Below are positions 11,893 to 16,971 of a stretch of DNA of 24,212 nt, piece after piece. Source of the DNA: a virus (lineage: Duplodnaviria; Heunggongvirae; Uroviricota; Caudoviricetes). The notes under the pieces were generated by a model. The model was given only the letters and a program-made list of their open reading frames with translations, made no database searches and was not told the DNA's origin. The position numbers and the translations under genes are program-made. Every line of letters begins with the position of its first letter. Positions within the stretch are counted from its first letter, which is position 1. The stretch is taken from IMG/VR virus record IMGVR_UViG_2529292882_000019; one strand, 5' to 3'.

Positions 11893-12436
11893 TTACCAGG
11901 CACTGCGAATGGCGGCAGAAAATGCAACCCCTGGCGAATGGTGTTCTGATGATTACTATGGGGTAATTGCTGATGCCGGACTGAACGCAAATTACTACAT
12001 AGCATCATGCTCAGGACCAGATAATCGCGCCAATAAGCGATTCATAGCAGCAGCCAATCCGGCTACCGTGCTGGCACTGCTGGATGAACGGGAAGCCCAA
12101 AGCAAACGCATTGCAGAACTGGAGACTAATCTTGCTGCACTTGCGGCGGAGAATGCGGGGCTGAATAAATTTATCGTACAGAGTTGCTACGTGCTTGATG
12201 GCGAGCAGGATGAACTATCTGATGCGTATATCTGCGCAATAGACGGAAGGATGCCGCAAATCCCAGCCACCGACGCTTTCTTGTCGGATGTGCGGGCTGG
12301 GGCGTTTAACGACCTTTGCGCGGCGTTTGTCAGGCACGCAAAAGTTGCAGGACTGGATGATGCCGATACCGTAACGCTTAAGGAAGTGACAGAAGCATTG
12401 TTGCATTGTGCGGAACAGATTCGCGCGCCTGAATAA
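11879..12436 (+). CDS. Ea22/ead-like family protein, about 185 aa from a GTG with AGGAGG RBS
   Basis: AGGAGG precedes the GTG at 11879. Protein resembles lambdoid Ea22-like proteins by recall (NATPGEWC motif, coiled-coil centre). Confidence 0.55.
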
Positions 12437-12506
12437 TTAAATTTAGTGTTGTAAATAAAATTTAATCCTTAACCGGAGGGATTTCTGCACCCTCAAATAA
12501 TCAGGA

Positions 12507-12526
12507 GGCCGCCCAAAAGGGCGGCT
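12507..12526. terminator. Bidirectional hairpin terminator between the Ea22-like gene and the 4-TM gene
   Basis: Stem GCCGCCC/GGGCGGC with AAAA loop. Moderately U-rich downstream on both strands. Confidence 0.5.
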
Positions 12527-12536
12527 GTTCCGCTGT

Positions 12537-13091
12537 TCAATTATCTAAAATTGTGCTAAATCTTTTTATTACCATTAAGAACGTTATAACAGTGATAAAA
12601 AAGGATGTATAGGCTAAAAAGCTAACAATATATGCAGGTGCGCGAAAATACCATTTCATTAAATCCACTGCATTGTCAGGCAGGAAATATATTATCACTG
12701 AAAATATAACCAATACTATTGAAGTTAATATTGCATAAGCGACGTTGTGGCATAACTGCTCATATATGGTTTTGTTAGTGTTTAATGATATCAATTTGTC
12801 TCGGGATTTGTTTCCTTCAATTATGTCTGATATCTTAGTGATGGTTTTTTGTTTTTGTTCATAAATCATTATTACTGCACTCATTAATAGTGCTGTTGTA
12901 ATAGCCCCGAAGTTAACAAAGACGGAAGCAATTGCCGGTTTCATTATTCCGTATGTCCAGCACAGAACGAAAGAAAGAGATAACGGAACAATAAAATGTA
13001 CGATAATGTCGCTCATCAACATTGTTCCACGCTGATCTGACATTGTTTTGTAGTGTTTTATTATTACACCCAGCACATTTATTTTATTCAT
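12537..13091 (-). CDS. Small integral membrane protein with four predicted TM helices, 184 aa; putative effector of a two-gene cassette
   Basis: Four hydrophobic segments (IIVHFIVPLSLSFVLCWTYGI; AIASVFVNFGAITTALLMSAVIMIY; VAYAILTSIVLVIFSVIIYFL; APAYIVSFLAYTSFFITVITFLMVI). ATGA start/stop overlap with the upstream gene and AGGGGTGA RBS. Strongly AT-rich codon usage unlike the flanking prophage genes. Confidence 0.75.
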   Translation of the reverse strand: MNKINVLGVIIKHYKTMSDQRGTMLMSDIIVHFIVPLSLSFVLCWTYGIMKPAIASVFVNFGAITTALLMSAVIMIYEQKQKTITKISDIIEGNKSRDKLISLNTNKTIYEQLCHNVAYAILTSIVLVIFSVIIYFLPDNAVDLMKWYFRAPAYIVSFLAYTSFFITVITFLMVIKRFSTILDN

Positions 13092-14019
13092 ATAATCACC
13101 CCTTTGTTTCCGCTATGCAGTTCTAACAATATATCATTAGAAAGGTTTTTTATCGTGTCATGAAGTGCTGTTAGATCAGGTATGCCTGTTAATGGGTCGA
13201 TTTTTAGATCATTATCATCTAACTCTGCGGAAATTCCTTTTTTTAGTATGGTATCATAATTGAAAACGACAGTCCGACTGCCGAGTTGTAAGCTTACTTT
13301 TATTGCATCACATTTATCTTCAATAATCTCAATGATGTTTCCTATATTCTTGTTTCTTAAATCCCTGAAACTTCCGAACATGCCATCGTTTGCTTTTATT
13401 ATTAAGTCTGTCTTGATGTTTGTTTTGTTTTGACCAAAGGAATCAGCAATGTCTTTTGGTGCTTTATATCCTTGAGCCTTAATTTGTTTTAATTCGGAAT
13501 TGAGAATATATTGAGGGATTTTCTTATGATGTAATGGATTGATTCTTGCTTCGAGTTGAAATTTGTTTTTTAGATATTCAGTGATAGAATCAGAAAGGAC
13601 ACCTCGAGCAGAAATATTATCGCAAGAGTGGAATGCAATAATTCCTTCTTTAAGGGCGTCTGGTAGGTATATTAAAATATAACGTTCTTTGAGTGTTACA
13701 TCATAAGCAGTTGTCCTATAGTGGATTTTTTTGAGTTTTACATCTTTTATTTCACTGCTTTCTCCATATTTCCCAACTTTTATATAACCATATATAATTT
13801 TTTTGAGTTATCAAAGTGAAGTTTAGCGTGTTGTTCCAGAGATATTTTAGTTTTGGATACGCCAAACTCGATGGGGGTGTTTTTATATAGAGTAAAATAA
13901 TCAACAAAAAGTTCATATGCCGTTTTTTTATTACTTAAACCCAATTCATTAAGTTTTTTGCTGGCTCGACTGCCTTTATGGGTCAATACGCGGAATGAAT
14001 AGAAATTAACGCTGTGCAT
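13088..14019 (-). CDS. Soluble protein of about 310 aa encoded in two frames: 79-aa ORF (14019..13780) plus a 240-codon open frame (13807..13088) joined by a -1 shift at an A7 tract (13798..13804); possible pseudogene, homopolymer error or slippage
   Basis: AAGGA RBS 7 nt before the ATG at 14019. The downstream frame has no stop for 240 codons and no ATG/GTG/TTG before codon 143, which is unlikely by chance in AT-rich DNA. Heptamer A_AAA_AAA sits in the 25-nt window where both frames are open. Contains an Rx4H motif (RINPLH). Confidence 0.6.
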
Positions 14020-14043
14020 GAAAAGTCCTTTTGAACATATAGG

Positions 14044-14070
14044 AATATACTAGAACATAAATAGATGCAA
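14044..14070 (-). promoter_or_regulatory. Candidate sigma70 promoter for the two-gene cassette
   Basis: On the minus strand: TTGCAT, 15-nt spacer, TATATT, ending about 25 nt upstream of the cassette ATG. Spacing is suboptimal. Confidence 0.2.
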
Positions 14071-14421
14071 TGCATAAAGGAAAAGCTACCGCAGGGCGAA
14101 CTCACCCACCGATAGCTCTTAACTGGTTGTTTGTAAAAGATAATACATAAATTGGGGCTGTGTAAAGAGGTAAGCATCGTCAGGGCAAGGGAGATGTGTT
14201 AGGCGATATTGGTAAAATTTTCGTTGAGGATAAAAACGGTTTGCGGGAAAAGGAGAGTTAAGTAGAATTGCTGCGGGTGCTTGAGGCTATCTGCCTCGGG
14301 CATGAACACCAACGGCAGATAGATAAAAGCCCCACCCGACTATAAATCGAAGTGAGGCCCCTATATGCTCGTCACATATAGATTGCCTCTTACTGACCGA
14401 AAGGTCAAGGAGAAGCAGGCT

Positions 14422-14577
14422 ATGAAGCAGCAAAAGGCGATGTTAATCGCCCTGATCGTCATCTGTTTAACCGTCATAGTGACGGCACTGGTAACGAGGA
14501 AAGACCTCTGCGAGGTACGAATCCGAACCGGCCAGACGGAGGTCGCTGTCTTCACAGCTTACGAACCTGAGGAGTAA
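14422..14577 (+). CDS. hokD: Hok/Gef-family type I toxin, 51 aa (HokD/RelF-like)
   Basis: MKQQKAMLIALIVICLTVIVTALVTRKDLCEVRIRTGQTEVAVFTAYEPEE: single TM helix plus conserved C-terminal periplasmic region of Hok toxins. Followed by a strong terminator. Confidence 0.8.
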   Translation: MKQQKAMLIALIVICLTVIVTALVTRKDLCEVRIRTGQTEVAVFTAYEPEE

Positions 14578-14646
14578 GAGACCTGGCGGGGGAGAAATCT
14601 CCCGCCACCTCTGATGTGTCAGGCATCCTCAATGCACCCACACTTA

Positions 14647-14675
14647 ACCCGCTTCGGCGGGTTTTTGTTTTTATT
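14647..14675 (+). terminator. Rho-independent terminator downstream of hok
   Basis: Stem ACCCGC/GCGGGT with TTCG loop, followed by TTTTTGTTTTTATTTT. Confidence 0.8.
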
Positions 14676-16817: not shown

Positions 16818-16893
<76 letters not shown>

Positions 16894-16896
16894 TAT

Positions 16897-16971
<75 letters not shown>

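Follow-up and report, generated by a model that had tools for sequence, protein, structure and literature searches.

RexAB of phage lambda was the first phage-exclusion system to be described. How it works has yet to be settled, and it tends to be treated as peculiar to lambda, with few analogues scattered elsewhere. In the published topology of RexA, a split globular domain is combined with an inserted dimerisation domain and a returning C-terminal helix (PMC11077077), and the Rex-like A components of actinobacteriophages dimerise and bind DNA non-specifically (PMC11077077). Likened by description, Sbash gp30/gp31, CarolAnn gp44, Toast gp42 and Butters are likewise two-gene Rex-like exclusion modules of temperate phages, the host phylum of these actinobacteriophage pairs being other than that of the prophage studied here. 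The RexAB-type system as a kind is already known, and it has lately been extended to Pseudomonas, where RexABpp of P. putida (PP_5643/PP_5644) was validated (Sci Rep 2026; PMC12894663) and PP_5643 was linked to RexA at 98% by HHpred (PMC12894663). RdgC (PDB 2OWL), a recombination-associated DNA-binding protein, also counts among the closest known systems to the locus described below.

The window, that is, the whole stretch of 24,212 nucleotides analysed here (IMG/VR record IMGVR_UViG_2529292882_000019), carries a RalA sRNA at 1557-1735 on the plus strand (Rfam, 222 bits). In the Rac prophage, RalA serves as antitoxin in the type I toxin-antitoxin system RalR/RalA; its presence here, along with that of intR and recE-type genes, identifies the window as a Rac-like prophage. 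A minus-strand cassette of two genes, A and B, is found at 12537-14019, flanked by the prophage replication genes on one side and a hok/sok locus on the other (Table 1). We consider it rather probable, judging from the combined analyses below, that with this cassette a Rac-like lambdoid prophage carries, as a moron, a two-component module of the RexAB type for phage exclusion (abortive infection); this reading draws on the RexA-like fold of A, its obligatory four-transmembrane (TM) partner, the translational coupling of the two genes and their moron-like mobility.

Table 1. Positions of the cassette genes and of their expression signals in the window
Feature	Position	Strand	Basis or remark
Gene A, RexA-like cytoplasmic protein, 310 aa frame-corrected	13088..14019	-	split by a frameshift in the window
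A7 homopolymer, -1 frameshift site of gene A	13798..13804	-	alignments to relatives L001, L002 and L003; homopolymer listing
Gene B, 184-aa four-TM membrane protein, presumed effector	12537..13091	-	ORF, hydropathy, AF2 model, family alignment, PHROG 15250
ATGA, overlap of the stop of A and the start of B (translational coupling)	13088..13091	-	sequence
Shine-Dalgarno AAGGGG of gene B	13104-13099	-	sequence
Shine-Dalgarno AGGA, 6 nt upstream of the gene A ATG	14026..14029	-	sequence
Candidate sigma-70 promoter TTTACA, 18 nt, TATCTT; 9/12 matches; weak	14137..14166	-	
Hairpin GCCGCCC-N4-GGGCGGC, perfect 7-bp GC stem	12508..12525	.	

The preliminary description of this DNA, made from the letters alone, had pointed to an AT-rich block transcribed against its surroundings, and both observations were borne out. 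GC content is 0.31-0.37 over 12400-14200 (31-36% in the cassette itself), as compared with 0.50-0.58 in the left flank and ~0.50 in the right one, and both genes run opposite to the flanking plus-strand replication and nin-type genes. The ribosome-binding start and the ATGA coupling claimed for the cassette were also found (Table 1). The promoter and the terminator that had been proposed stood only in part. One promoter candidate does lie upstream of gene A, but promoter-like sites are no commoner in the cassette region than in shuffled sequence (6 found vs. 7.7 expected). Similarly, a perfect hairpin lies 12 nt past the stop of gene B, before the end of a convergent Ea22-like gene, but a T-run is lacking and terminator prediction did not call it; it may act as a bidirectional terminator, though not a canonical one.

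Gene A is disrupted in the window. From the start at 14019, its N-terminal ORF extends over 79 aa (14019..13780), and the remainder lies out of frame down to the stop at 13088. Aligning gene A with its intact counterparts in three relatives, E. coli JNU, E24377A and EC11, located the frameshift: the run of seven A residues in the window is A8 in JNU, the closest of them, while the other two have eight bases at this site, interrupted by G or C. Addition of one A restored a 310-aa protein that matched PHROG 15676 end to end (positions 1-310/310), in agreement with the soluble protein of about 310 aa that had been predicted after frame correction. The dN/dS of gene A was 0.04-0.26 versus the relatives, and the values of 0.04-0.09 versus more distant alleles show that the gene is under strong purifying selection. 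The sole further indel in the 1.85-kb block, G4 versus G5 of JNU at 14154, is non-coding, lies upstream of gene A, and is a homopolymer deletion as well, so that the frameshift may stem either from an error of sequencing or from slippage in the very recent past. A programmed contingency tract was also considered and rejected, as G or C breaks up the run in two of the intact relatives and more distant ones have no comparable run at this site. Without a full-length A, the window copy is presumably inactive for exclusion unless the base call is wrong; that is, it is either dead or mis-sequenced.

The structure of A was modelled with AlphaFold2 on P0001, an intact homologue of 95% identity. The model had a mean pLDDT of 73, with a confident N-terminal portion of 165 residues and a poor stretch at residues 190-234. 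From the N-terminus, an antiparallel sheet with flanking helices is followed by a middle beta/alpha domain and a long C-terminal helix, an order of secondary structure that agrees with the published RexA topology (PMC11077077). When the model was searched against 48,164 solved chains, lambda RexA was the top match, and the architecture of the model is that of the RexA/RdgC-like two-domain fold, with a split beta-sheet globular domain, an inserted beta/alpha domain and a C-terminal helix. Foldseek against viral models returned uncharacterised phage proteins of ~300 aa (E down to 5e-16) together with RdgC-like phage proteins. The fold of A is thus predicted, on the basis of this model, to be nearest to that of lambda RexA and RdgC.

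At the sequence level, the Pfam profile of RexA was matched neither by the window A at E<=1, nor by 17 family members at E<=10, nor by 118 members at E<=0.01, and no link was given by profile searches of the PDB or by hhalign against lambda RexA alone. A comparison set of four RexA and four RexB homologues was then collected from phage records. Aligned by hhalign with the four RexA sequences, the A family gave a probability of 16% (P = 0.0016), the aligned region being RexA 129-212, which covers the hinge and the dimerisation region; hmmsearch with the RexA HMM gave a marginal best E of 0.008, versus 0.1 in reversed controls. As the hhalign score was equalled by one of the 30 block shuffles, sequence homology between A and RexA is not claimed here.

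The preliminary description had also read the RINPLH stretch of A as a weak hint of a HEPN RNase. This would make A a HEPN-type RNase that acts through an Rx4-6H motif and is coupled to a membrane protein, which we regard as very improbable. The residues are indeed present in the window A, as R159-x4-H164 or R159-x5-H165, and R159 and H165 are conserved in the close family, but most homologues have Cys at H164, the 28%-identical homologue of locus L008 has K for R159 and P for H165, and neither R159 nor H165 is conserved over the 118-member alignment. HEPN domains are all-alpha, while in the model the motif forms a beta strand and belongs to a domain of mixed alpha/beta type, and no HEPN family was matched in Pfam or PADLOC. 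A HEPN identity of A is effectively refuted by the unconserved motif, its position in a strand and the mixed fold.

The partner gene B (13091..12537) is intact and encodes 184 aa. Hydropathy analysis placed hydrophobic segments at about residues 27-47, 52-76, 115-137 and 152-176, and in the AF2 model (pLDDT 85.5) a short amphipathic helix at the N-terminus precedes four long helices, the second and third of which (TM2 and TM3) are joined by a charged loop of ~35 residues (77-112). The four-TM membrane protein of the preliminary description was thereby recovered by both methods, and as a small four-TM inner-membrane protein encoded right after a RexA-type gene, B takes the place of RexB, for which the identical hydropathy method also gave four segments. 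Judged by the positive-inside rule, the two termini of B and its charged loop are probably cytoplasmic, a topology like that of RexB. B matched PHROG 15250 over its full length. In an alignment of 31 homologues of 39-84% identity, TM2 (VNFGAITTALLMSAV, motif VNFGxITTALLM) and the C-terminal motif ITFLMxxKRF (KRF) were invariant. No link to RexB was obtained: B matched no Pfam or PADLOC model, hhalign of the B family with the four RexB sequences gave a probability of 0.4%, the B-family HMM scored lambda RexB at E 1.6, and Foldseek of B against BFVD gave nothing significant and did not return RexB.

Compared with the lambda pair (RexA, PDB 8TWQ), A and B thus have no detectable sequence similarity and differ in size, A having 310 aa vs. 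279 aa for RexA, and B 184 aa vs. 144 aa for RexB, with a longer cytoplasmic loop. The A/B junction is an ATGA overlap, whereas 15 nt separate lambda rexA and rexB; and the window pair adjoins hok at the junction of replication and nin genes, on the strand opposite to them, whereas the lambda pair belongs to the immunity region. The repressor-type genes of the window are ~5 kb from its pair. With regard to RexABpp of P. putida, PP_5643 was linked to RexA by HHpred, while the A family was not linked by the shallower profiles used here. The termini of PP_5644, deduced from the cloning primers, have neither the N-terminal M-x-K-I-N nor the C-terminal motifs of the B family. A scan for the start of PP_5643, taken from the published cloning primer, found it absent from the genome and viral contigs, and the metagenomes gave chance matches only.

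To what extent A and B belong to families described already was assessed by profile searches. Neither protein matched a model in Pfam, NCBIfam or PADLOC, and PADLOC-DB v2.0.0 yielded no family for either at E<=1. The 118 A-family members were likewise without a Pfam match (E<=0.01), and with PADLOC produced just five single-member, chance-level hits. In PHROGs, both proteins fall into 'unknown function' families only, and searches by accession number and by title brought up no paper that deals with the A/B family. These results are in line with the preliminary description, which could assign neither protein to a described family.

The relatives of A detected by word-indexed search formed 33-38 clusters, all from Enterobacterales and all of ~310 aa, and those of B formed 60 clusters of a somewhat wider range. 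An exhaustive profile search extended the A family to 845 representatives at E<=1e-3 (clusters at 50% identity), nearly all of them 296-333 aa in length; 277 of the 845 were found at E<=1e-10. The pairing of the two genes was examined in 13 related loci, from sources that include Yersinia, Enterobacter, Proteus, P. aeruginosa, and marine and other metagenomes, and a B homologue directly followed the A homologue in all 13. In detail, B came right after A proteins of 28-38% identity in Yersinia, Enterobacter (three genomes), Proteus and one further genome; in four distant lineages, where A identity is ~20-26%, the next protein matched the B HMM with E values of 1e-9 to 1e-40; and a Pf filamentous phage pair of P. 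aeruginosa matched the A and B HMMs with E 3e-98 and 8e-34, respectively. One metagenomic siphovirus was returned by the structure searches of both A and B, and it has the pair. The 4-nt overlap of the genes recurs in L004-L009 and in Pseudomonas phage PfAC16. The pairing of A with B is therefore kept down to ~20% identity.

The pair was next considered in its genomic surroundings. In the closest relative, the plus-strand genes upstream are annotated as a replication module, a DUF1627 protein and an Ea22-like protein, and those downstream as hokD, DUF1367, DUF1364 and a Q-type region. Among 5,426 complete E. coli genomes the pair is rare, being present in 37, among them ETEC E24377A, whose intact pair is WP_000556393 and WP_001033793. 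In each of the 37 its site is a Rac/Qin-type prophage, with the replication module on one side and hokD on the other. In the window, a Rfam sok match (14275-14424, 106 bits) and a 51-aa HokD-type ORF (14422-14577, plus strand) adjoin the cassette, so the Hok gene noted immediately beside it is confirmed. The hok/sok locus (14275-14577, plus strand) looks complete, having also a 70-aa mok-like ORF from 14365, with a terminator-like hairpin at 14646-14663. Farther downstream, beyond the Q-type region, an AT-rich patch holds two adjacent tRNA genes, for Thr(TGT) and Gly(TCC), at 16818-16971 (plus strand), and related prophages have tRNA-Ile and tRNA-Arg at the equivalent place.

The defence hotspot that had been suggested from this neighbourhood held up less well: a Hok gene does adjoin the cassette, but in other E. 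coli prophages the slot by hokD holds a Paa adhesin, a KilA-N protein or small unknown ORFs. In a prophage of E. coli O157:H7 (L025:1881-3333), a paa adhesin gene and a frameshifted fimbrial gene lie just upstream of hokD, which indicates that the slot exchanges virulence cargo as well as defence-type cargo. The slot is better described as a variable cargo slot, not a defence-specific one.

The proximity of another membrane-toxin system, hok/sok, also bears on an alternative in which A and B serve addiction by a membrane toxin, or superinfection exclusion, through a non-Rex mechanism; B would be a small membrane toxin or would block DNA entry, A would regulate it or act as its antitoxin, and the prophage would be stabilised or injection blocked instead of infection being aborted. 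The AT-rich, mobile cargo character of the pair would fit such a module, as would the invariant and polar TM2 of B, which is what a pore or an interaction surface would have. However, a 310-aa A protein with a RexA-like two-domain fold is unlike known antitoxins, A is encoded first and is the larger of the two proteins, and no toxin-antitoxin or superinfection-exclusion model was matched in PADLOC, Pfam or NCBIfam. On balance, this alternative appears unlikely.

Beyond E. coli, the locations of the pair are diverse. In a Yersinia P2-like prophage (L004:7169-10544) it occupies the hotspot between gpA and the portal gene, beside an AAA+/S8-peptidase gene pair; this AAA ATPase and Peptidase_S8 gene pair itself looks like another candidate defence system. 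In a myovirus-type prophage (L008:5066-6561), the pair is inserted as a moron in the tail module, where accessory cargo is unusual, with an SLT-domain tape-measure gene on one side and a Dit-like gene on the other. Among single relatives, it was found in the equivalent lambdoid slot, though on the other strand, in one, next to an integrase in another, and on an island with Mrr and HipA genes in a third. In a distant relative (L018), the pair directly follows an S24 CI-like repressor gene, as in the lambda order cI-rexA-rexB. ORF1 and ORF2 of PfAC16 (OR863247; L029:412-1883) belong clearly to the A and B families; the two ORFs adjoin the repressor gene and have a GC content of 42% vs. 59% for the Pf backbone. 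A published PADLOC-based analysis of PfAC16 left this ORF1/ORF2 pair unflagged. Gabija, Avs, IetAS and further systems are present in the variable accessory genome of other Pf phages. Such occurrence of an AT-rich pair in accessory or defence slots of unrelated prophages agrees with the acquired moron inferred previously.

The same locations weigh on a further possibility, namely that A is mainly a RexA/RdgC-like DNA-binding protein serving the prophage itself, perhaps by biasing lysis-lysogeny or acting in recombination, with B as an accessory partner and no anti-phage role for the pair. RexA acts on the lysis-lysogeny switch and on recombination independently of RexB. The occurrence of the pair far from immunity regions, in a tail module, in a P2 hotspot and on non-prophage islands by Mrr/HipA, is not expected of a switch modulator, and the strict conservation of the four-TM partner and the ATGA coupling argue for a joint action of A and B. 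A role confined to the prophage is accordingly given a small share of the likelihood.

The RexA/RexB-like plan and the candidate defence role put forward in the preliminary description, by contrast with its HEPN hint, gained support from RexA as the best structural match of A, from the conserved pairing and from the accessory or defence slots in which the pair resides. Extrapolating from lambda RexAB and P. putida RexABpp, a RexAB-type module of this kind might work as follows. Its own signals, and its orientation opposite to the repressed early-right operon, would allow it to be expressed in the lysogen. On infection, dimers of A would bind DNA or a replication or recombination intermediate of the phage, and activated A would engage the cytoplasmic face of B, for which the N-terminal amphipathic helix and the charged loop 77-112 are candidate contact sites. 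B would then open or permeabilise the inner membrane, leading to a collapse of the membrane potential, and the infected cell would stop growing or die, so that the spread of the incoming phage would fail. B without A would not be expected to trigger.

What is new in this locus is that both components belong to large families without a name or a model in Pfam, NCBIfam or PADLOC, that they are paired family-wide, and that they occur in tailed as well as filamentous prophages. We see about an even chance that the pair is the E. coli member of a large unnamed defence family (~845 clusters at 50% identity) in which every examined member has the same four-TM partner family, and which would work in a RexAB-like way while being unrecognisable by sequence, in tailed (lambdoid, P2-like and myovirus) and filamentous (Pf) prophages alike; B would then represent a membrane-effector family distinct from RexB, and Rex-type abortive infection would be far wider than catalogued.

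If this is true, Rex-type modules of a sensor and a membrane effector would form a broad family missed by current annotation, with members in Enterobacterales, Pseudomonas and bacteria from the environment and in prophages of the tailed as well as the filamentous kind, and a missing entry would be added to the defence catalogues. Some of the unexplained phage resistance of lysogens would be accounted for, which would be relevant to phage therapy in ETEC and P. aeruginosa, and the many natural variants of A and B would become available for studying how a RexA-like protein switches a membrane effector.
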